The translations under genes and the position numbers were made by a program. A stretch of DNA of 18,317 bases from IMG/VR virus record IMGVR_UViG_2519103024_000008. The stretch is one strand, 5' to 3'. Source of the stretch: a virus (Duplodnaviria > Heunggongvirae > Uroviricota > Caudoviricetes). Shown here one piece after another: positions 1 to 17,418 of the stretch. The notes under the pieces are model-generated. The model searched no databases and had not been told where the DNA came from. It saw nothing but the letters and a program-made list of their open reading frames with translations. Within the stretch, counting starts at the first letter, position 1; every line of letters begins with the position of its first letter.

Positions 1-171
1 TCAATAAATCCCATCATTGCGATCAACCTCATCCTTAACCATTGATGCGAGCAGTTCTTCCAGTTTCTGCGCTGATAGCTTTACCTGGTGATCTTCAGCA
101 TCTTCCCGGGCTATTGTGGTTCGCGCAGTGGCTGATTTTGCTGACATCACCACAGGGGGCAGACGGACCAT
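1..171 (-). CDS. Hypothetical small protein, about 56 aa (48 aa if it starts at the ATG at 145-147)
   Basis: Minus-strand ORF ending with TGA at 1-3. ATG at 169-171 has GGAGG about 10 nt upstream (revcomp of 182-186). The longer 93-aa ORF in the track (to 282) would run through the hairpin at 238-270, so the shorter start is preferred. No recognisable family. Confidence 0.3.
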   Translation of the reverse strand: MVRLPPVVMSAKSATARTTIAREDAEDHQVKLSAQKLEELLASMVKDEVDRNDGIY

Positions 172-235
172 TGAACCATGGCCTCCGGAACAAATAAGGG
201 CAAAAATAACAACCACTATCGAAAGCTCACAAACT

Positions 236-451
236 AACCGCAGCACGTTCCTGCATACGACGTGTCTGCGGCATAATCCCAATGATTACTCCCTGACAGG
301 ATTTGCAGGCCACTCAATATCAGGTGCAGTTGATGTATCAACACGATTCAACAATACCCGATATTTATTCCATGCCTCCAGCAACGATCTTTCTTCCTCC
401 GTTGCGATTTCCAGATCTACAGCATCCTGCAGTGGCGCAATATACTCACTG
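236..451. repeat. Direct repeat copy A (about 215 bp): 3' end of a tfa-like gene plus downstream hairpin; partner at 1286-1500
   Basis: Aligned by eye to 1286-1500 at roughly 85-90% identity, with one indel in the hairpin arm. Both copies begin at a CCGCAGCACGT inverted-repeat element and extend through the last ~55 codons of a Tfa-family ORF. Confidence 0.7.
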
Positions 452-555
452 AATTCCTGGATGTAGAACTGTGTGGTGACGGTCTTCCAGCCATTCGGCT
501 CCTGCTGTATCGAAGCATACCAGGCTATTTCAATATCGCTATGCTGCGGCAGCAT
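286..555 (-). CDS. Tail fiber assembly protein family, truncated paralog (89 aa; C-terminal Tfa domain with an unrelated 35-aa N-terminus)
   Basis: The C-terminal ~54 aa ([51 protein letters not shown]) are near-identical to the C-terminus of the Tfa at 1335-1919. ATG at 553-555. The layout resembles tfaD-ybcY-tfaX of E. coli K-12 prophage DLP12 (from memory). Confidence 0.6.
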
Positions 556-582
556 TTAACCCCTTGTAATTCATCGCCATAA

Positions 583-611
583 TTGATTTAATTCACAAAT
601 AAAACTATAAC
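583..611 (+). promoter_or_regulatory. Putative sigma70 promoter for the methyltransferase gene (-35 TTGATT at 583-588, 17-nt spacer, -10 TATAAC at 606-611)
   Basis: Hexamers read directly from the sequence in the AT-rich region upstream of the plus-strand ORF. The predicted start site (~618) lies downstream of the ATG at 612, so the ATG at 624 may be the real start with a very short leader. Confidence 0.3.
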
Positions 612-1280
612 ATGGTGAAATCAATGAAAAAAAACACAGATGATGGGGCTAAAATTTACACACCACTTACCCTAAAGCTTTATGACTGGTGGGTTTTGGG
701 AGTATCAAATCGGCTTGCATGGGGATGTCCTACAAAGGAACACCTTCTTCCACACTTTCTGGAACATGTAGGTAACAACCATCTGGATATTGGTGTTGGA
801 ACTGGGTTTTACCTTACTCACGTACCTGAGAGTAGTCTGATATCTTTAATGGATTTGAACGAAGCTAGCCTGAACGCGGCATCTACAAGGGCTGGGGAAT
901 CAAAAATTAAACATAAAATTAGCCATGATGTTTTTGAACCTTATCCCGCGGCGTTACATGGTCAATTTGATTCCATTTCCATGTTTTACCTTCTTCACTG
1001 CCTGCCTGGAAATATATCTACAAAAAGCTGTGTAATACGCAATGCGGCGCAGGCCTTAACTGACGATGGAACTCTATACGGAGCCACAATTCTTGGCGAT
1101 GGAGTTGTGCACAATAGCTTCGGTCAAAAACTGATGCGCATTTACAATCAGAAAGGCATCTTTTCAAACACAAAAGATTCCGAAGAAGGCTTAACACATA
1201 TACTCTCAGAGCATTTCGAGAATGTTAAAACCAAGGTTCAAGGTACTGTAGTAATGTTTTCCGCTTCAGGGAAAAAATAG
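612..1280 (+). CDS. Class I SAM-dependent methyltransferase, YbcY-like prophage moron (222 aa; alternative start at 624)
   Basis: Glycine-rich motif I LDIGVGTGFY, followed by an acidic residue at the end of the next strand (SLISLMDLNE). Only plus-strand gene in the window, visibly AT-rich relative to flanking tail genes, and flanked by direct repeats. Position between two tfa-like genes matches ybcY of DLP12 (recalled). Confidence 0.7.
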   Translation: MVKSMKKNTDDGAKIYTPLTLKLYDWWVLGVSNRLAWGCPTKEHLLPHFLEHVGNNHLDIGVGTGFYLTHVPESSLISLMDLNEASLNAASTRAGESKIKHKISHDVFEPYPAALHGQFDSISMFYLLHCLPGNISTKSCVIRNAAQALTDDGTLYGATILGDGVVHNSFGQKLMRIYNQKGIFSNTKDSEEGLTHILSEHFENVKTKVQGTVVMFSASGKK

Positions 1281-1285
1281 CATCC

Positions 1286-1500
1286 AACCGCAGCACGTTC
1301 TTGCTTAAGACGTGCTGCGGCATAATCCCAATGATTACTCCCTGACAGGGTTCGTAGGCCACTCAATATCAGGTGCAGTTGATGTATCAACACGGTTCAG
1401 CAACACCCGATACTTTTTCCAGGCTTCCAGCAATGAGGTTTCTTCCTCCGTTGCAATTTCCAGATCTGCAGCATCCTGAAGCGGCGCAATATGCTCACTG
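1286..1500. repeat. Direct repeat copy B (about 215 bp): 3' end of tfa plus downstream hairpin; partner at 236-451
   Basis: See copy A. Covers tfa codons for ...[52 protein letters not shown] and about 49 nt downstream. Confidence 0.7.
1288..1320. terminator. Strong stem-loop between convergent methyltransferase (+) and tfa (-) genes; possible bidirectional terminator
   Basis: Perfect inverted repeat CCGCAGCACGT ... ACGTGCTGCGG (11 bp) with 3 further pairs inside the loop. On the minus strand it is followed within ~12 nt by TTTTTT (revcomp of 1272-1277). A degenerate copy lies at 238-270. Confidence 0.4.
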
Positions 1501-1919
1501 GCTACCTGCATCAGGTTGTTTTTTGTTTCTTCCGCCTCCCGGATCCGGAACATTTTTTCTGCTTCCGTATCCTTCACCCAGGCTGTGCCGTTCCACTTCT
1601 GAAACTCCCCTTCCGGCGATAACCAGGTAACATTTTCCGGTAACGGACCGAGTTCAGAAATAAATAACTCGTCCCCTGACGCTACGTCATAAACCGTTTT
1701 ACCCCGATGGTCTTCAACGAGATGCCACGATGCCTCATCACTGTTGAAAACAGCCACAAAGCCAGCAGGAATATCTGGTGGTGCAATATCGGTACTGTTT
1801 GCTGGCAGACCTGTATGAGGCGGAATATATGCGTCACCTTCACCAATAAATTCATTAGTTCCGGCCAGCAGATTATAAATTTTTATGGTCCGTGCTTGTT
1901 CACTCATTCTGAATGCCAT
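1335..1919 (-). CDS. tfa: Tail fiber assembly protein Tfa (194 aa)
   Basis: N-terminus [54 protein letters not shown] matches lambda Tfa as recalled. Its ATG (1917-1919) overlaps the stf stop TAA (1919-1921), implying translational coupling. Confidence 0.9.
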
Positions 1920-4900
1920 TATGCAAGCCTCACAATATAGTTAAATGCGATGTTTTTGACGGTGTTTTCCGCGTTACCAGCAGCGTTAACGGTGATGGTG
2001 TGTCCATGTGAACCAATCGCAACGGAGTGCGTATGCGCACCAATACCTACAGTATGTGCATGTGCGCCAGAACTTGCTGCAGTACCAGACAGCGAGTGGG
2101 TATGAGCACCTGCTGACTGTGTCTGAATACGTTGATAATACGATCTACGGGAAGAAGTCCCCGGGCTTACTTGATACTGTGAATCCTGGACATAAGTGAA
2201 CCCACCGCCATCATAAAATGCTAACGCAGAACCGCCGCCTCCTGGCCAACGAATACCATTACCATGAGTATGATCACCGGCAGACCCCGTAGAGCCACTC
2301 AGACTGTGCGTATGCGCCCCGGTGTTATTCGTGGATTTGGTTCCGTAATCAAACGACGATGTGTTTTTCGTCCCCAAATCCGTACTGGATGCGCTGGCGC
2401 TGTGGGTGTGCGATTTAATGCCGTCCTGTTCCTGAGACAATACGGCACGACCACTGGCGGGTTTGCCCTTAATCGTCCAGCCACGCATATCAGGGATCAC
2501 GCCTGACGGATAAGCGGCTGCAAGTTTTGGGTATGCAGATTTGTCAAAAGTCTGCCCCTGCATCAGGGCATAGCCAGACGGAACGGTATCTGATGGCCAC
2601 GGGATTGGTGCGCCAGGCGGATAAAACTGCTCTGATGGCGTATAGAGTGAATAAACTGTACCGTCCGTTAACCCTTCCGGCTTATTAGCAGAATATGCTG
2701 GTGACGTATGAATCGTCACGCTGGCATTACTGGTATAATCCCATTGAATATTTACACCAGTCGCATAATTTCCGATTGCAACGTAAATATCGTAAGTATC
2801 ACCAGATGTATTGACCCAGGCAAAATTTGTAAACCCTGTCGATGTGCGCTGCCATAAAGCACCAGTAATCCCCTTCGGATTACCATTACCTGCACGCAAA
2901 ACAAGTTCAGATATACCTGCCTGTTGAGGTGACCCCACGTTAAATCCCGCACCACCAATCAACGTAATTGAAACAACAGAACTCGCCTGTGGCATGGTTA
3001 CCGTTGCTAATTTGAACCAACCAGCACCACCGCTGAATGACATTGTTGTTGAGTTAAGCGTACCAATATCTTTCGGCGTCAGTGTTATATCCGCTGAAAG
3101 CGCCTTACCATTCACCTTACGGGCAGAAGGTACCCGACCATTCGCATTATTATTAGCTGCTTTCACTGCTTTCGGTGTCGCGGCAAGCGTTTCAGATGCG
3201 CTGTTNNNNNNNNNNNNNNNNNNNNNNNNNNNNNNNNNNNNNNNNNNNNNNNNNNNNNNNNNNNNNNNNNNNNNNNNNNNNNNNNNNNNNNNNNNNNNNN
3301 NNNNNNNNNNNNNNNNNNNNNNNNNNNNNNNNNNNNNNNNNNNNNNNNNNNNNNNNNNNNNNNNNNNNNNNNNNNNNNNNNNNNNNNNNNNNNNNNNNNN
3401 NNNNNNNNNNNNNNNNNNNNNNNNNNNNNNNNNNNNNNNNNNNNNNNNNNNNNNNNNNNNNNNNNNNNNNNNNNNNNNNNNNNNNNNNNNNNNNNNNNNN
3501 NNNNNNNNNNNNNNNNNNNNNNNNNNNNNNNNNNNNNNNNNNNNNNNNNNNNNNNNNNNNNNNNNNNNNNNNNNNNNNNNNNNNNNNNNNNNNNNNNNNN
3601 NNNNNNNNNNNNNNNNNNNNNNNNNNNNNNNNNNNNNNNNNNNNNNNNNNNNNNNNNNNNNNNNNNNNNNNNNNNNNNNNNNNNNNNNNNNNNNNNNNNN
3701 NNNNNNNNNNNNNNNNNNNNNNNNNNNNNNNNNNNNNNNNNNNNNNNNNNNNNNNNNNNNNNNNNNNNNNNNNNNNNNNNNNNNNNACTCGCGTCGTTGT
3801 CGTAGCGTCCTGAGCAGTATATTTCCCGTTAGCAAGGTCATAGGCTGCCTTTACCGACTTTGGCGTTGCCGCCAGCATTTCAGATGTGCTGTTGGTTGCA
3901 CTACTGAGCTGGACAATTCCTTTTTGTGCTGTCGTAGCGTCCTGAGCAGTATATTTCCCGTTAGCAAGGTCATAGGCTGCCTTTACCGACTTTGGCGTTG
4001 CCGCCAGCATTTCAGATGTGCTGTTGGTCGCGTTGCTAAGCTGAACTATCCCTTTCTGTGCTGTCGTTGCATCCTGTGCGGTGTATTTCCCGTTAGCCAG
4101 CTCATACGCGGCCTTAACGGCTTTTGGCGTTGCCGCCAGTGACTCGGAAGTGCTGTTAGTCGCACTGCTGAGCTGTACTATCCCCTTTTTCGTCGTGCTC
4201 GCATCCTCAAGCGCCACGGCGGATGCAATATCCTCTGCCCGTTTTGCCGCTGTCTCAGCGCGCGTTGCCGCGGATTCCGCCGTACTTTTGCTCTGAGCTG
4301 CCGCCGTCGCACTGCCAGCTGCCTCTGTCGCCTTCGTGGATGCCGTCGTGGCGCTGCCCTTTGCTGCTGACGCCTGTCTGGTCGCCTCATCTTTTGAAGC
4401 AGACGCAGATGATGCCGATGACGCCGCCGAACTGGCGGACGATGCGGCAGCCGTTTTTGAGGATTCTGCGCTGGTTTCCGACGCTTTCGCGTTCGTCTTG
4501 GATGTCTTCGCTGCGGAAGCAGACCTCGCTGCTGCGCTGGCCTGTACAGCGGCTTCGCCAGCCTTCGTTGTGGCTGTTGAAGCAGACGATGCAGCACTTT
4601 CTGCCGATTTTCCGGCGGCGGTGGCACTGGCTGAGGCCTGCCCGGCACTTGTTGACGCGGCACTGGCAGATAATGCAGCCGCTGTTTTTGAGTCTGCCGC
4701 AGCTGAGGCGCTCTGTCCCGCTGCCGTTTCAGAAGACCTGGCGTTCGTCTCGGACGTTTTTGCCGCCTTCGCAGAATTTGCTGCCGCCGTTGCCGAGGAA
4801 GCTGCGCTGCTGGCGCTCGAGGCTGCGTTCGTTTCTGATGATTTTGCCGCCTCTTTTGAAGCCGACGCATCCCGTGCTGAAGTGGCTGCTTCTGACGCTT

Positions 4901-6400: not shown

Positions 6401-9400
6401 TCAGCTGATACTGATGCCTGCGGTGGCTTTCTTCATCACCACAACCAGCAAATCGCTGATACTTGCTGTGGGATACCAGTTATTCACCAGCCATGCTGAC
6501 ACCGAAAACTCCAGCGTCATGTGGCCGCGACCAGCTGGCATATCAATAACACCACTGTAAATCAGCGTATTATCCAGCGCGGTACGGTTATAAATTTCAG
6601 CACCGTTTTTCCGTACTATCAGGCGGCATGACGAATAAATATCGTTATTCTCCCGCTCATGTTTAGCGCCGCTGAATGCCACCGCCGGAATAACAATCTG
6701 CCGGTCAAACGGCTGATCGTCATAAACCCTGACGGTGATGGTCCCTGATGGCCACCGTTCCGGTGCACGGGAGTCCCGGGGGAAAGCTTTGCCCACTGTT
6801 TTAACGAGATCGCCTTCAATCTGGTTGGCGGACAATTTTCCCAGAACCCGACAGTTCTCGTTAATCGTGACGTTGTTGAGCGTCCCGGAGTTCGCATTCA
6901 CGTTACCGCTGATATCGGCATTTTTCGCCGTCAGCCGCCCGTCCGGTGTCAGGGAAAATGCCGGAGGATTACCGCCGCTGGTAATGGTCGGAGCCGTCAG
7001 GCGTTTCAGGAACACGTCGTTCATGAATATCTGATCGCCCTGACCAACAAACATCGGCTTTGTGTTGCCATTCGCAGGATTAATCATCGCAATCCGGTCA
7101 GCAGCCAGAAGCACCTGACTCTGCATACCTGCTGGCGTATTCTCAATACCGGCTCCGATACCCGCAATATAAAGGCGTCCGTCCTTCATCTGCTGCAGTT
7201 TCACGGCCCACATGCTGTTCAGGTTATTATTTGTATCAACCTGAACTTTCTGTATCTGCTGGATTGCCGCACTCTGGTCTTCCAGTTTTTTATTGACGGT
7301 CTGCGTGATTTCATTGCTGACATTCGTAATGGACGTCCTGATTTCAGCCAGGTCCGGCGCAAGCTGACCGTTATCAATCTGCGTCCACAACTCCTGGGCC
7401 AGATGTGTTTTCCCGATTTCTCCTTTGAAAAAATCCAGGTAACCTTCCGCATCATCGCTCGCCCGACCGACAGCCTCCACGAATGCCGATTTGCCAACGG
7501 TGTTCACACTGCGAACGTAAAAATAATAATCATGGCCCGGTTTGATATTGATACTGGCGGCTATCCAGTACAGCGCCGTACCAAGATAGCGGGCTGTGGT
7601 TTCAACCTGCCTGATATCGGTAATCCGCTTTTCCGAGAACCAGAACTCAAACTGTACCGTCGGGTCATAAACAGCAAGATGCGGCGTGGCGGTTATCTGA
7701 AAATAGCCCGGCGTCAGCTCAATCCTCGACGGTGCTGCCGGTGCGGCAATCCGGAACGATACCGACGCCGGATCGCCCTGCTGCCCCCGGGCATTTACCG
7801 CCCGGACTGTCAGCCTGTAGTTCCCCAGCGCCAGTTGCGTGAAGCGGTATGTGGTTTCCGTCGTCCGGGCCGTGCTGACCAGTCGCTCACTGCCGTCGTC
7901 CGCTGTTACGGTCAGACGGAGCAGGAAGCTCACGCCCTTCACCACCTTCGGTGTGTCCCATCGCGCCAGCACCTGATATTCCCCGCTGTCTGCAGTGACT
8001 TCGGCGGTCAGGTGCTGCACTGCTGGCGGCGTGACACCATTCACCGTGCCGCTCTGGTCACCGTCAAAGTGCGCCCCGTTATCCACGATGGCTTCTTTCT
8101 CCGGTACATGCTGCACGGCGGTGATGGCATACGTGCCGTCATCGTTCTCACGGATACTCACGCAGCGGAACAGGCGCTGGCGCAGCGTCGGCAGCTTCAG
8201 CCCCCACACGCTGTATTCTGCAACGCCGTCAGGAACACGGCTCACTTTCACCTTCACGCCGTCGGTGACGGACTGGACCTCCACGCTGACCGGATTACCC
8301 TGACCGTCAACCAGGCTTATCAGCGTGGTACCGGAGGATGGCAGCGTGATTTCACGGTCGAGCGTCAGCGTCCGGGTCTGGCTGTTCACCGCCAGCACGC
8401 GCCCGCCAATGCTGATCCCCGCATAGTCATCATCGCAGATTTCAATAACATCACCCGGTACATGGCGAAGCCCTTCTGCGCCGACGCTGAAATCCACGGT
8501 CTGCGTCTCCAGCAGTTCCGTTTAATCAGCCACAGCCCGGCGCGGTGTGCCTGCCCCCGGCTGGTCAGCCAAAGGCATCCATCTTCGTGACGTTACGACC
8601 GTAACGGGCAATGGCCTGCGTGTCCTCCACAGCTCTGTCNCCGTCTCCCAGCCGTTATCCGGTCAATCCAGTTCANNNNNNNNNNNNNNNNNNNNNNNNN
8701 NNNNNNNNNNNNNNNNNNNNNNNNNNNNNNNNNNNNNNNNNNNNNNNNNNNNNNNNNNNNNNNNNNNNNNNNNNNNNNNNNNNNNNNNNNNNNNNNNNNN
8801 NNNNNNNNNNNNNNNNNNNNNNNNNNNNNNNNNNNNNNNNNNNNNNNNNNNNNNNNNNNNNNNNNNNNNNNNNNNNNNNNNNNNNNNNNNNNNNNNNNNN
8901 NNNNNNNNNNNNNNNNNNNNNNNNNNNNNNNNNNNNNNNNNNNNNNNNNNNNNNNNNNNNNNNNNNNNNNNNNNNNNNNNNNNNNNNNNNNNNNNNNNNN
9001 NNNNNNNNNNNNNNNNNNNNNNNNNNNNNNNNNNNNNNNNNNNNNNNNNNNNNNNNNNNNNNNNNNNNNNNNNNNNNNNNNNNNNNNNNNNNNNNNNNNN
9101 NNNNNNNNNNNNNNNNNNNNNNNNNNNNNNNNNNNNNNNNNNNNNNNNNNNNNNNNNNNNNNNNNNNNNNNNNNNNNNNNNNNNNNNNNNNNNNNNNNNN
9201 NNNNNNNNNNNNNNNNNNNNNNNNNNNNNNNNNNNNNNNNNNNNNNNNNNNNNNNNNNNNNNNNNNNNNNNNNNNNNNNNNNNNNNNNNNNNNNNNNNNN
9301 NNNNNNNNNNNNNNNNNNNNNNNNNNNNNNNNNNNNNNNNNNNNNNNNNNNNNNNNNNNNNNNNNNNNNNNNNNNNNNNNNNNNNNNNNNNNNNNNNNNN

Positions 9401-9926
9401 NNNNNNNNNNNNNNNNNNNNNNNNNNNNNNNNNNNNNNNNNNNNNNNNNNNNNNNNNNNNNNNNNNNNNNNNNNNNNNNNNNNNNNNNNNNNNNNNNNNN
9501 CTGGATCTGAACCAGCAGGCGGACTTCCGACGGATTCCTGTCCTCCTTTGAGGTGGTTTCCACCAGTGCCTGCACACCGAAGGTAAAGCGCAGACGGTCG
9601 ATGTTTGCCGACGTGATGGTCCGGGTGATCGGCGTGTCATATTTCACTTCCGTACCCAGCACCGTCTCGGAGCCGGAGGATTCAAATCCCTCCGGCGGTG
9701 TCTGCTCCTGCTCACCTGCCCGGAACACCACCGTGACACCGGATATATTGGTATTCCCCTCACTGTCCAGCACCGGCGTACTGTTCAGCAGCACGCTTTT
9801 TAATCCGTCCACCGGACCTTCAACCGGCCCTTCGCTGATGGCATCGATCACACTCAGCAGCTGCGTGGACTTCAGGTTGTCCCTCGCTTCGCGCGGGGTA
9901 TGCCCCTTACTGCTTCCTTTACCCAT
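6401..9926 (-). CDS. J: Tail tip / host-specificity protein J (central tail fiber), interrupted by gap 8676-9500 and with frame breaks in 8498-8675
   Basis: N-terminus [54 protein letters not shown] and the long central region match lambda J as recalled. SD GAGGA precedes the ATG at 9924-9926. The last ~150 aa differ from lambda. The frame is restored by assuming 4 single-base deletions next to the gap. Confidence 0.85.
8676..9500. other. Assembly gap (825 N) inside J; isolated ambiguous base at 8640
   Basis: Run of N read directly from the sequence. Confidence 1.
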
Positions 9927-11788: not shown

Positions 11789-12542
11789 NNNNNNNNNNNN
11801 NNNNNNNNNNNNNNNNNNNNNNNNNNNNNNNNNNNNNNNNNNNNNNNNNNNNNNNNNNNNNNNNNNNNNNNNNNNNNNNNNNNNNNNNNNNNNNNNNNNN
11901 NNNNNNNNNNNNNNNNNNNNNNNNNNNNNNNNNNNNNNNNNNNNNNNNNNNNNNNNNNNNNNNNNNNNNNNNNNNNNNNNNNNNNNNNNNNNNNNNNNNN
12001 NNNNNNNNNNNNNNNNNNNNNNNNNNNNNNNNNNNNNNNNNNNNNNNNNNNNNNNNNNNNNNNNNNNNNNNNNNNNNNNNNNNNNNNNNNNNNNNNNNNN
12101 NNNNNNNNNNNNNNNNNNNNNNNNNNNNNNNNNNNNNNNNNNNNNNNNNNNNNNNNNNNNNNNNNNNNNNNNNNNNNNNNNNNNNNNNNNNNNNNNNNNN
12201 NNNNNNNNNNNNNNNNNNNNNNNNNNNNNNNNNNNNNNNNNNNNNNNNNNNNNNNNNNNNNNNNNNNNNNNNNNNNNNNNNNNNNNNNNNNNNNNNNNNN
12301 NNNNNNNNNNNNNNNNNNNNNNNNNNNNNNNNNNNNNNNNNNNNNNNNNNNNNNNNNNNNNNNNNNNNNNNNNNNNNNNNNNNNNNNNNNNNNNNNNNNN
12401 NNNNNNNNNNNNNNNNNNNNNNNNNNNNNNNNNNNNNNNNNNNNNNNNNNNNNNNNNNNNNNNNNNNNNNNNNNNNNNNNNNNNNNNNNNNNNNNNNNNN
12501 NNNNNNNNNNNNNNNNNNNNNNNNNNNNNNNNNNNNNNNNNN
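11789..12542. other. Assembly gap (754 N) covering the M 3' end and most of L
   Basis: Run of N read directly from the sequence. Confidence 1.
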
Positions 12543-17022: not shown

Positions 17023-17418
17023 TCACATCTCGTATGTAATGGAATAAGTCAGATCTGCAGAACTCCATAACGCCATATCGTCATCACGACGATACTCATA
17101 GCCCTGCGTAACCATCGTGGTAATCAGTCCTGCCAGTGCCGGGATCGCGGTCATCGCCGGGTAAATCCGGCTTTCCATCCACTGATCAAGCTCTGAATCC
17201 GGTACCTGTGCCGGTAAAAACACCTCAATATGCAGCGTGGCCCGCCAGGTATCTGCATCCAGCTCTTCACCGGTATACTCTGCATCCGTCAGATAAACCG
17301 CGATCGCAGGAAAATCCTCTTCGTCAAAAACAACGGGGCGACCATCAAACAGCGTCGCCCCGTGTTCATGCTGCTCGAGTGCATCCAGCACTGCGGCACG
17401 AATGTCAGTGTGTTTCAT
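17023..17418 (-). CDS. U: Tail tube terminator protein U (131 aa)
   Basis: [43 protein letters not shown]..., recalled as lambda gpU. Start overlaps the Z stop (ATGA-type coupling). Confidence 0.9.

Follow-up and report, generated by a model that had tools for sequence, protein, structure and literature searches.

A stem-loop with conserved pairing where tail-fibre genes of lambdoid prophages meet convergent genes, a probable RNA 3'-end element and mosaic junction

Genes and repeats at the locus

The window, by which we mean the whole 18,317-nucleotide stretch of DNA that was analysed (IMG/VR record IMGVR_UViG_2519103024_000008), is a lambdoid prophage of B2 E. coli, found for example in UTI89 and ATCC 11775. 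Its order of features, read from the tail-fibre genes towards position 1, is tfa, a hairpin (copy A), a methyltransferase gene, a tfa' remnant, a second hairpin (copy B) and a further Tfa remnant. The tfa gene (1335..1919, - strand), the last gene of the tail (late) operon, encodes a tail fibre assembly protein of 194 aa (PGAP; Pfam Caudo_TAP, E = 1.3e-44) that is 94% identical to lambda Tfa in alignment. Convergent on it is a moron-like cargo gene for a class I SAM-dependent methyltransferase of 222 aa (612..1280, + strand), a homologue of K-12 ybcY. The tfa' remnant (286..555, - strand) is 89% identical to tfa over its 3' 177 nt (286-462), and its reading frame continues to 555 with an unrelated N-terminus. 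The last remnant, a third tail-fibre-assembly-like (DUF4376) pseudogene (1..189, - strand), is annotated by PGAP in the identical region of ATCC 11775 and runs off the window toward the prophage end in ompW'.

Copy A occupies positions 1288..1320. Its outer arms (1288-1298 and 1310-1320) form an 11-bp stem that is 100% complementary with 11 nt between the arms, and RNA folding adds three inner pairs (1300-1302/1307-1309), a 1-nt bulge at 1299 and a 4-nt loop at 1303-1306; the near-perfect 11+3 bp hairpin described in the earlier note is thus confirmed. So is its siting between convergent genes: copy A lies 14 nt 3' of the tfa stop codon (1335-1337, - strand) and 7 nt 3' of the methyltransferase stop codon (1278-1280, + strand), a single hairpin common to two convergent 3' ends. 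It is the longest perfect stem with a 3-15 nt loop in the window, and stems of this kind with at least 11 bp are expected 0.075 times per dinucleotide-shuffled window (reached in 11 of 200 shuffles). Folding of both copies, as the earlier note had proposed, gave -23.0 kcal/mol (+ strand, z -5.3) and -24.4 kcal/mol (- strand, z -4.2) for copy A, with none of 200 shuffles folding as stably, and -17.9 (+) and -21.6 (-) kcal/mol for copy B. Of 5426 complete E. coli genomes, 2528 (about half) carry a 41-mer with copy A in its exact form.

Copy B (238..271) has the stem of copy A with one extra base, and its loop is of the CGTATGCAGGA type. The arms read CCGCAGCACGT (238-248) and ACGTG-T-CTGCGG (260-271); the extra base is T265 on the + strand, a bulged A on the tfa-sense strand. 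It had been described as a degenerate copy with a 1-nt insertion at 238-270. The insertion is real and the true span reaches 271, but the label "degenerate" is misplaced, since the family, lambda included, shows the bulged stem more often than the unbulged one of copy A.

Both hairpins are parts of direct repeats (repeat families D1 and D4). The left copy (236..462) carries hairpin B and the 3' end of tfa', and the right copy (1286..1511) hairpin A and the 3' end of tfa. Identity is 90% between 236-264 and 1286-1314 and 89% between 266-462 and 1315-1511, so the repeat copies are homeologous rather than a recent duplication. The repeat ends 2 nt outside the stem, which bears out the placing of the hairpin at the repeat boundary.

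On the far side of the hairpin from tfa there is normally a conserved 62-nt block, (T/C)TGGCTGGTGAACTTTCGATAGTGCGAGTATTGAATGATTTCCAGCCGTTACCGATTTTAC, hereafter D3. Following copy A, the first 7 nt of this block (TTGGATG; 1281..1287, - strand) are present and the block is then cut off by the methyltransferase stop codon. Following copy B, a diverged version of its first 25 nt (TTAGTTTGTGAGCTTTCGATAGTGG; 213..237, - strand) leads into the junction with the third Tfa-like remnant.

The stem-loop belongs to a family shared by lambda and E. coli prophages

The earlier note suggested a search for the same inverted repeat at the 3' ends of tfa genes in other prophages. The search showed that the hairpin is one copy of a stem-loop common to phage lambda and thousands of E. 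coli prophages, with roughly 16,000 places counted in 5,239 E. coli genomes. We define here a lambda-type tfa-downstream stem-loop family by a stem 14-15 nt after a lambda-type tfa stop codon together with homologous flanks; its alignment comprises lambda, DLP12 and more than 40 variants, and the window hairpin belongs to it with its CCGCAG(N)CACGT...ACGTGCTGCGG-type stem and homologous flanks. Since the best 120 Tfa homologues listed were all at least 78% identical, diversity was taken from a genome-contig scan and from DNA-pattern scans.

In lambda the stem-loop lies at about 22,573-22,606 (arms GCCGCAGAAACGTT...AACGTTCTGCGG; -21.2 and -15.5 kcal/mol), 14-15 nt after tfa and facing the convergent gene ea47, which takes the place of the methyltransferase gene of the window. 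No feature is annotated there in NC_001416, OM418625 or JQ086376, and literature searches found no named lambda terminator after tfa. The lambda element is homologous to that of the window, in the same position and with the same CCGCAG/CTGCGG base and ACGT core, and it shares with copy B the place of the bulge and the downstream tail TTAGTT. It differs in pair 7, which is A-U and not C-G (a compensatory change), in having one extra inner pair, and in its loop. The tfaD-ybcY hairpin of K-12 prophage DLP12 (NC_000913.3, 582112-582144) has the same order of tfa, hairpin, methyltransferase and tfa remnant (tfaX) and the same loop; it differs by one G-to-A change, seen as C.A in the RNA of tfaD sense and as G.U in that of ybcY sense, and ybcY itself is frameshifted.

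Conservation of pairing was analysed in 44 distinct variants anchored by tfa or by the D3 block downstream, not by the stem sequence. A second set of variants, which had been selected on stem sequence, was for that reason kept out of the covariation analysis and used for the flanks only. Many of the variants come from decaying prophages, and part of the covariation signal derives from a few related lineages. Across the 44 variants 91.1% of the pair cells are paired; sliding the partners lowers this to 19-48%. Changes on both sides of a pair affect 4 of the 11 pairs, with 10 such cells compared with 2.3 in shuffles (0 of 500 shuffles as high), and at the same place some loci have wholly different stems, GCAGCCTGT/ACAGGCTGC and CCGCAGTA/TACTGCGG. 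The compensatory changes and the replacement stems argue for selection for pairing across the family. The position of the extrahelical base is conserved and its identity varies among A, C, T and G. Counts of wobble pairs favour neither strand: 19 cells are G.U in the tfa-sense strand, and 19 are A.C there and would be G.U in the other. These equal counts fit use on both strands, and they fit a DNA-level or neutral palindrome equally well.

A palindrome that persists only through its linkage to the 3' end of tfa, a functionless passenger that has not yet decayed, would account for the lack of wobble strand bias and of a mapped 3' end, and single-mismatch variants are indeed frequent in cryptic prophages (K-12 and loci L015 and L053). 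We consider it unlikely: the compensated pairs and the replacement stems indicate that pairing has been selected for across the family, the hairpin is kept while both of its flanks are replaced, and analogous terminators follow unrelated tfa genes. The latter were seen with distant Tfa homologues (33-66% identity; Salmonella, Erwinia, Kosakonia, Enterobacter), where unrelated canonical hairpin-plus-U terminators come right after the stop codon.

The same covariation bears on a role of the double-stranded DNA, namely as operator for a dimeric protein, to which a perfect palindrome would be suited. Pairing is preserved rather than sequence, and both loop and bulge vary. Equally, the hairpin might be part of a 45-aa open reading frame (1225-1362, - strand) that is annotated through it in RefSeq genomes (PGAP "hypothetical/nucleocapsid protein"), but this frame has no Pfam or NCBIfam match and cannot persist in the many contexts with other flanks. 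Operator or coding sequence, either explanation is extremely improbable.

A probable role at RNA 3' ends

Copy A has the stable GC-rich stem and short loop of an intrinsic terminator, and the earlier note proposed a bidirectional one, with a T-run following on the minus strand. That run is the complement of an A-run (1272-1277) made up of the Lys-Lys codons AAA AAA before the methyltransferase stop codon (1278-1280), 10 nt from the stem. No U-rich tract was found 0-2 nt 3' of the copy A stem on either strand, and the terminator scan made no call there; the tails are UUGGAUGC (3/8 T, tfa-sense) and CAUAAUCC (2/8 T, methyltransferase-sense). Copy B has on the - strand the tail TTAGTTTG, i.e. UUAGUUUG (5/8 T), a moderate to marginal U-tract at which the terminator scan does call it. 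The arrangement of an A-tract upstream and a U-tract downstream, which gives both strands a hairpin plus U, is present in neither window copy; it is found in full or in part in other family members, e.g. L053, L083, L086 and L096. With an A-rich upstream flank, UUUUUC or UUUUCUUU follows the hairpin on the opposite strand, a canonical terminator for the leftward unit.

In K-12, transcription in the sense of the methyltransferase gene ybcY is reported to end about 110 nt beyond the hairpin, in a zone of Rho-dependent termination. No 3' end bearing the hairpin is listed in the MG1655 Term-seq tables (Adams et al.), where DLP12 is cryptic and poorly expressed. Given the missing adjacent U-tract, the coding nature of the T-run and the Rho-dependent zone in K-12, copy A is not a canonical bidirectional intrinsic terminator. 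What stands of the earlier proposal is a structure-conserved stem-loop between convergent genes, with covariation, homology to lambda and analogous terminators after distant tfa genes.

Bidirectional terminators between convergent genes likewise consist of a GC-rich stem-loop common to two convergent 3' UTRs, and the window hairpins depart from them in that copy A lacks an adjacent U-tract and copy B has a moderate one on the tfa-sense strand only. Protective stem-loops without U-tracts at Rho-dependent 3' ends are an established class in E. coli (Dar and Sorek 2018, PMC6061677); the window hairpin resembles them as a stable stem-loop without a U-rich tract and with Rho-dependent termination just downstream in K-12, a likeness drawn from sequence, structure and the K-12 Rho zone. 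REP elements are also repeated intergenic palindromes able to stabilise upstream mRNA. A REP-like identity was rejected, as the sequences are unrelated and the window hairpin is confined to prophage tail-fibre ends and forms no clustered BIME-type arrays.

Taken together, we think it probable that the element is an RNA 3'-end stem-loop at a convergent-operon boundary, serving as a weak bidirectional terminator or exonuclease barrier, and at the same time a homology island and mosaic junction. The structure and position of the hairpin, its homology to lambda and DLP12 and its covariation are direct results, and from these we infer the mechanism. The stem-loop would be transcribed into both convergent RNAs, tfa-sense from the - strand and methyltransferase-sense from the + strand. 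It would there act as a weak, U-tract-poor intrinsic terminator, as a block to 3'-to-5' exonucleases once Rho-dependent or collision-induced termination has occurred further on, or as both. In this way it could fix and stabilise the two mRNA ends and limit antisense read-through into the neighbouring unit, and it would mark where the lambda-like rightward late (tail-fibre) operon ends and meets leftward accessory or early genes. Transcription complexes modified by Q (late) or by N (pL) are resistant to intrinsic terminators, so termination proper is perhaps minor in lytic growth.

Coding genes are exchanged on both sides of the hairpin

The earlier note also raised the possibility of a recombination or site-specific element that defines the junction of the methyltransferase cassette. 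Among 97 distinct contexts sharing the hairpin, flank homology stops 0-7 nt from the stem in 73% of pairs upstream and in 56% of pairs downstream, which supports the mosaic junction. The flanks fall into 19 upstream and 9 downstream classes, in 29 combinations, and the neighbours across loci are dinI, int, GIY-YIG, pin, GGDEF or methyltransferase genes. At one locus (L182) the hairpin and the 62-nt D3 block abut the lambda sib/tI-attP-int module directly, which places the hairpin exactly at the meeting point of convergent operons. The intergenic element has been kept while the coding genes on either side were exchanged, and this points to a homology island and a recurrent mosaic junction; with the genes on both sides swapped around it, the hairpin itself appears as a largely ordinary element.

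D3 is 90-99% conserved across 66 distinct sequences, and the coding genes beyond it differ. Locus L012 matches the window exactly as far as TTGGATG and diverges beyond it; its hairpin passes directly into D3, and the locus is a candidate empty site for the methyltransferase gene. Morons of lambdoid phages (Juhala et al. 2000, as cited in PMC4104026) are extra transcription units of deviating composition that have a promoter and a terminator of their own and lie between genes which are neighbours in relatives. The methyltransferase gene resembles it in having a GC content of 0.38-0.45 (0.46-0.55 in the flanks), a hairpin at its 3' end, the candidate empty site, and a sigma-70-like promoter candidate (556..583, + strand; TTAACC-16-CATAAT), the last being a consensus match only, at 9 of 12 positions. 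A difference is that the stem-loop did not arrive with the moron: it is part of the resident tfa module and shared with it.

Does a dedicated recombinase act at the hairpin, either on an attC-like folded hairpin or at an invertase crossover, so that it defines the methyltransferase cassette? Several features invite this reading: the hairpin sits precisely on the edge of the direct repeats and at mosaic breakpoints in most comparisons, the stop codon of the cargo gene is just 7 nt away, the extrahelical base with its conserved position and varying identity recalls the extrahelical bases of attC, and GTTGGAT after copy A on the - strand fits the attC R' consensus GTTRRRY. Copy B, lambda and the D3 consensus do not fit GTTRRRY, however (GTTAGTT, GTTGGCT), and its same-strand partner RYYYAAC is absent. 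Integron attC sites, at 57-141 nt, are not known to be as short as the 33-nt element. No recombinase is encoded beside the hairpin in the window, and the neighbours vary widely across loci. The copies are direct repeats, flanked on one side by 197 nt of tfa coding sequence that is homeologous between them, which is what the joining of two tfa modules gives, and they bear no similarity to hix, gix or cix. We regard a site- or structure-specific recombination site as very unlikely.

Two definite candidates were rejected on these and related grounds. An integron attC site does not agree with the 33-nt length, GTTRRRY at copy A only, the missing RYYYAAC partner and the absence of an integron integrase. 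A Hin/Gin/Cin/Pin crossover site (26 bp, AAACC-NN-GGTTT core) does not agree with copies in direct orientation and has no core match at the hairpins; the sole hix-like near-match, a single 12-mer placed at 1226-1237 or 1228-1239, is at chance level. No resolvase or invertase open reading frame was found within 1-2400. The site-specific part of the earlier suggestion is thus not upheld: with no recombinase, no attC- or hix-like features and a homeologous tfa repeat of 227 nt on one side, the evidence points to ordinary recombination between modules. The arrangement in the window would then reflect stacked module joins between homeologous units of about 89% identity, each a tfa 3' end plus hairpin, with no dedicated site-specific system.

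D3 and similarity to a small RNA

Compared with Rfam, the window and 26 related loci gave two families only, CssrB, at the terminal helix, and IS009, which corresponds to tfa coding sequence; neither the element nor D3 is covered by a known RNA family. The - strand of copy A is identical to the 3' terminal helix and loop of CssrB (RF02799, chromosome-encoded Shigella sRNA B). CssrB, an RNA of about 180 nt, was seen on Northern blots of S. flexneri, and its 3' end was placed at this terminator by prediction, not by mapping (PMC3071730); the RNA also counts in favour of a 3'-end role of the hairpin. Only the terminal helix aligns in the window, at 32.6 bits, far under the gathering score of 76, leaving the other ~145 nt of the model unmatched. 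A closer partial match is L086 (44 bits), in a different upstream context.

The hairpin might be the terminator or Hfq-binding module of a small RNA, either a CssrB-like one in tfa sense or an opposite-strand, 3'-UTR-derived RNA of about 100 nt made up of D3, hairpin and U-tail; the latter concerns only family members with the full 62-nt D3 and an A-rich upstream flank, loci such as L053 or L086 being examples of the full module. Beyond the Rfam identity and the Northern-detected RNA, the conservation of D3 and the reading of antisense D3 and hairpin into a canonical U-tail in many contexts speak for such an RNA. D3, however, has no Rfam family of its own, and no promoter was found within or beside the conserved block. 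It also lacks informative covariation: when hairpin and D3 together were folded with RNAalifold, in either orientation, the hairpin was the one structure with support, the columns of D3 in this test being invariant partly from how the sequences were collected. Of the prophage small RNAs already known, none lies at this site (svsR is at cI, the Pas sRNAs at holin/lysozyme, and AgvB/AsxR at the pR' moron site). In the window only 7 nt of D3 remain beside copy A and 25 nt beside copy B, and the + strand has no U-tail, so that a small RNA of either kind is not intact there. As the function of the hairpin, a small-RNA module seems improbable to us.

Significance

Taken alone, the element is a routine regulatory hairpin, and its value lies in annotation and in phage evolution. 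In addition to the 3'-end role at the convergent boundary that we favour, we tentatively propose, as possible though not probable, that the hairpin and the 62-nt D3 together make up a portable intergenic module, about 95 nt long, and that this module defines the cargo slot at the lambdoid tail-fibre end. Such a module may have been kept for double duty, as terminator or insulator and as homology linker for RecA or Red-type swaps. Through the linker, tail-fibre modules may be exchanged to one side of it and cargo to the other side (methyltransferase, dinI, GGDEF, GIY-YIG, the whole lambda b region, sib-attP-int); where the flank is A-rich, the module may also be the source of a small RNA derived from a 3' UTR.

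The analysis recognises an unannotated, structure-conserved element in phage lambda itself, the tfa-ea47 stem-loop. It also offers an explanation for the stacked tfa remnants and the ybcY-type methyltransferase cassette in DLP12 and B2-lineage prophages, and it provides a precise, testable landmark for the exchange of tail-fibre (host-range) modules and cargo genes. Should the stem-loop and D3 act as a recombination linker or insulator, they would help in engineering lambdoid phages and in predicting cargo slots.

Structure and gene context of the hairpin

The hairpin at 1288-1320 (hairpin A) has two perfectly complementary arms, CCGCAGCACGT (1288-1298) and ACGTGCTGCGG (1310-1320), spaced 11 nt apart; in the RNA of either strand the stem continues past a one-base bulge with three more pairs, closed by a 4-nt loop. 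The inverted repeat noticed from the sequence is thus real. The plus-strand RNA folds with -23.0 kcal/mol (z = -5.3) and the minus-strand RNA with -24.4 kcal/mol (z = -4.2), values matched by 0 of 200 shuffles. It is the longest perfect short-loop stem of the window, with 0.075 such stems expected per dinucleotide-shuffled window and 11 bp reached in 11 of 200 shuffles. The second-longest perfect short-loop inverted repeat (10-bp stem, 11-nt loop) lies at 17333-17363, in the head/tail gene region.

A second copy (hairpin B) spans 238-271, one base more than the earlier note gave, and carries the 1-nt insertion described there: an extra base, T265 (plus strand), interrupts its 3' arm. Hairpin B folds with -17.9 and -21.6 kcal/mol. 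As had been noticed, the hairpin marks the boundary of a direct repeat (236-462 versus 1286-1511), which stops 2 nt beyond the stem on one side and 190 nt into the coding sequence of the tail fibre assembly gene tfa on the other. The repeat copies share only 89-90% identity and their loops differ; rather than arising from a recent duplication, they are homeologous modules with separate origins.

Over its first 2.4 kb the window matches, at 100% identity, a chromosomal stretch shared by ATCC 11775, UTI89, S88, APEC O1 and many other strains; this is where a lambdoid prophage that sits in ompW, with yciE and trp adjoining, has its right end. The minus-strand order is J, lom and stf, then tfa (1919..1335, minus strand; Pfam Caudo_TAP, E = 1e-44; 94% identity to lambda Tfa), hairpin A, a convergent class I SAM-methyltransferase gene (612..1280, plus strand), a tfa 3' remnant (555/462..286, minus strand), hairpin B and a third Tfa-like (DUF4376) remnant (from 189, minus strand). 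Hairpin A follows both stops, that of tfa at a distance of 14 nt and that of the methyltransferase gene at 7 nt. The lower GC content of the methyltransferase gene (0.38-0.45 versus 0.46-0.55 in the flanks) and a promoter-like site at 556-583 are moron-like features. Runs of N (3206-3786, 8640, 8676-9500 and 11789-12542; 2161 bases in total) mask parts of stf, J and other tail genes, where ORF lists are unreliable.

The intact tfa is followed by two successive Tfa-type 3' remnants, at 286-555 and 1-189 (both minus strand), which suggests at least two earlier replacements of the tail-fibre module at this prophage end; the tfaD/ybcY/tfaX region of K-12 DLP12 has the same pattern. Matches to the Rfam family IS009 (RF02111; gathering score 117) at 1378-1576 (223.8 bits) and 329-532 (112.5 bits), both on the minus strand, fall within the coding sequence of tfa and its remnant, and what this "RNA family" picks up here looks like conserved coding DNA of tfa, not a separate RNA.

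Evidence for selection on the pairing

The set used for covariation was gathered independently of the stem sequence, from loci anchored on Tfa and on the conserved block downstream of the hairpin. In the resulting alignment of 44 distinct hairpins, standard pairs filled 91.1% of pair cells, versus 19-48% when the 3' partners were slid by one to three columns. Both sides had changed in 4 of 11 pairs. Doubly changed cells numbered 10, against 2.3 in column shuffles, and none of 500 shuffles reached that number. Readings of the hairpin as a neutral relic or as an operator are less likely rivals. More divergent stems, CCGCAGTA/TACTGCGG and GCAGCCTGT/ACAGGCTGC, occupy the same position. Read in the tfa sense (minus strand), the alignment holds 19 G.U and 19 A.C cells, and therefore does not indicate the strand of use.

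The common state of the family has one unpaired base (A, C, T or G) after the sixth pair of the tfa-sense 5' arm. Hairpin B, called degenerate in the earlier note, therefore has the typical form, and the perfect hairpin A is the rarer, unbulged variant.

A coding role is a further reading. An ORF of 45 amino acids at 1225-1362 (minus strand) crosses the hairpin and is annotated by RefSeq/PGAP as "hypothetical protein", or as "nucleocapsid protein" in K-12-type records. It is probably spurious, since it gave no Pfam or NCBIfam match and could not be conserved across the variable flanks.

Homologues in lambda, DLP12 and CssrB

The same inverted repeat follows tfa in other prophages. Phage lambda carries it (GCCGCAGAAACGTTgtatgaaatAACGTTCTGCGGT; -21.2 and -15.5 kcal/mol) 14-15 nt after tfa, with the convergent ea47 opposite; it has an A-U pair where the window has C-G, its bulge lies in the same place as that of hairpin B, and three lambda-type records annotate no feature there. 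K-12 DLP12 retains the whole arrangement of tfaD, hairpin (582112-582144 in NC_000913.3, one mismatch), ybcY (a frameshifted methyltransferase gene) and tfaX. Of 5426 complete E. coli genomes, 2528 carry the exact 41-mer around hairpin A. A lambda-identical tfa (94% to the query) was also seen on short contigs of low coverage from unrelated genera, among them Bradyrhizobium, Paenibacillus, Streptomyces, Shewanella and Veillonella (L087, L089-L095, L097-L104, L109-L112 and others among the retrieved loci), most likely through contamination of these assemblies with lambda DNA.

An Rfam search bears on the reading of the hairpin as part of a small RNA. In the tfa sense it coincides exactly with the terminal 3' helix of CssrB (RF02799), but the remainder of the model is unmatched in the window (32.6 bits versus a threshold of 76). 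Northern blots of S. flexneri 301 showed CssrB as a ~180-nt RNA, whose 3' end was assigned from a prediction of a Rho-independent terminator (PMC3071730).

The hairpin at mosaic junctions

A stem-anchored scan, together with copies in loci already retrieved, yielded 264 hairpin instances. The 255 with full flanks combine 19 upstream with 9 downstream classes in 29 combinations. Upstream lie tfa genes of several types, at a gap of 14-15 nt, and a gene for a pin-type invertase; the convergent genes downstream include methyltransferase (gap 7), dinI-like (gap 68), GIY-YIG, integrase, ea47 and GGDEF-type genes. In an ungapped comparison of 97 distinct 333-nt contexts (4656 pairs), homology ended 0-7 nt from the stem in 73% of pairs upstream and 56% downstream; the corresponding values are 1.4% and 17% at 15-29 nt, and 0.9% and 11% at 55-69 nt. 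The link with mosaic junctions proposed from the sequence is real. The site-specific element proposed with it was not borne out: no recombinase, attC-like boxes or invertase-site features were found around the hairpin. Within the methyltransferase gene, AAAACCAAGGTT (1226-1237, plus strand) has the same sequence as the core of invertase crossover sites of the hix/gix type. It occurs once and no invertase lies near it; one match of this stringency would arise by chance (0.42 expected per window), and we rejected it as such a site.

The partner met most often downstream is D3, a non-coding block of ~62 nt that comes after the hairpin in most lambdoid contexts; its consensus is (T/C)TGGCTGGTGAACTTTCGATAGTGCGAGTATTGAATGATTTCCAGCCGTTACCGATTTTAC, and a D3-anchored scan added 124 further rows, also used in the covariation set. 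Its conservation (90-99% over 66 distinct sequences) exceeds that of the stem; it gave no Rfam family match and no informative covariation. Examples from three retrieved loci are L053:4682-4743, L086:4782-4843 and L182:3664-3725. Past D3, homology breaks at the stop codon of whichever convergent gene comes next. In one viral contig, L182, D3 directly adjoins the lambda sib/tI-attP-int module (L182:3630-3960 versus lambda 27,535-27,815, which is L371:336-615), and hairpin plus D3 therefore mark the left edge of the lambda b-region slot; in lambda itself this slot, bounded by the hairpin on the tfa side and by sib, is filled by the whole b region (ea47, ea31, ea59).

With truncated D3 remnants at both hairpins, the window shows module joins stacked at this boundary. 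At hairpin A, 7 nt of D3 (TTGGATG, 1281-1287) are left before the methyltransferase stop; the related locus L012 is identical to the window through TTGGATG and continues into D3 and dinI. At hairpin B, ~25 diverged nt (213-237) precede the next Tfa remnant. In L086, a close tfa relative is followed after its stop by a different, 17-bp hairpin (L086:3085-3135, GAACTGCAGGATATTATAtgggaTAATATTCTGCAGTTT), then a GGDEF-type cargo gene, then the CCGCAG hairpin with D3, so that the cargo lies between two terminator-like elements.

Terminator features

The bidirectional terminator proposed in the earlier note stands as a conserved stem between convergent genes, but hairpin A is poor in U-tracts on both strands: its tails are UUGGAUGC in the tfa sense (3/8 U) and CAUAAUCC in the methyltransferase sense (plus strand; 2/8 U), and a simple terminator scan called it on neither strand. 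The supposed minus-strand T-run is the A-run 1272-1277, where two lysine codons directly precede the stop codon of the methyltransferase gene; being coding and 10 nt off the stem, it is no terminator tail. Hairpin B, with UUAGUUUG in the tfa sense (5/8 U; 2/8 U in the methyltransferase sense), was called on the minus strand. In many other members the upstream flank is A-rich and the opposite strand reads hairpin plus UUUUUC or UUUUCUUU, which for the leftward unit is a canonical terminator. More distant homologues of Tfa (33-66% identity; Salmonella, Erwinia, Enterobacter, Kosakonia) have unrelated canonical terminators directly after their stop codons, and a terminator-type element is thus a recurring functional feature of this position.

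In direct RNA-seq of K-12, carried out both with bicyclomycin and without it, a Rho-dependent termination region maps to 582001 (minus strand), with upstream/downstream coverage of 78/17 reads without and 452/310 with the drug (PMC7815308, supplementary file 2). In NC_000913.3 this position is ~110 nt beyond the DLP12 hairpin when read in the direction of ybcY, antisense to tfaD, so ybcY-sense transcription reads through the hairpin in K-12. The K-12 MG1655 Term-seq tables list no 3' end with the hairpin sequence; DLP12 is cryptic. E. coli has an established class of stable stem-loops that have no U-tract and shield RNAs ended by Rho against 3' exonucleases (PMC6061677).

Biological role

The best-supported reading is a structure-conserved RNA stem-loop where the late tail operon meets leftward or cargo transcription, serving as a 3'-end element for both RNAs. 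Because the window hairpin is U-tract-poor, weak intrinsic termination at most would be expected of it; Rho or polymerase collision would end transcription beyond it, and the stem would block exonucleases. The mosaic-junction association is real; its best explanation combines selection for junctions that fall in a retained intergenic element with homologous exchange through that element. We consider it unlikely that hairpin and D3 form a portable insulator or recombination linker, or a source of small RNA. Only the D3 module and the role as a cargo-slot boundary are mildly new: the kind of element is already known, while this specific family is unannotated but widespread, phage lambda included.
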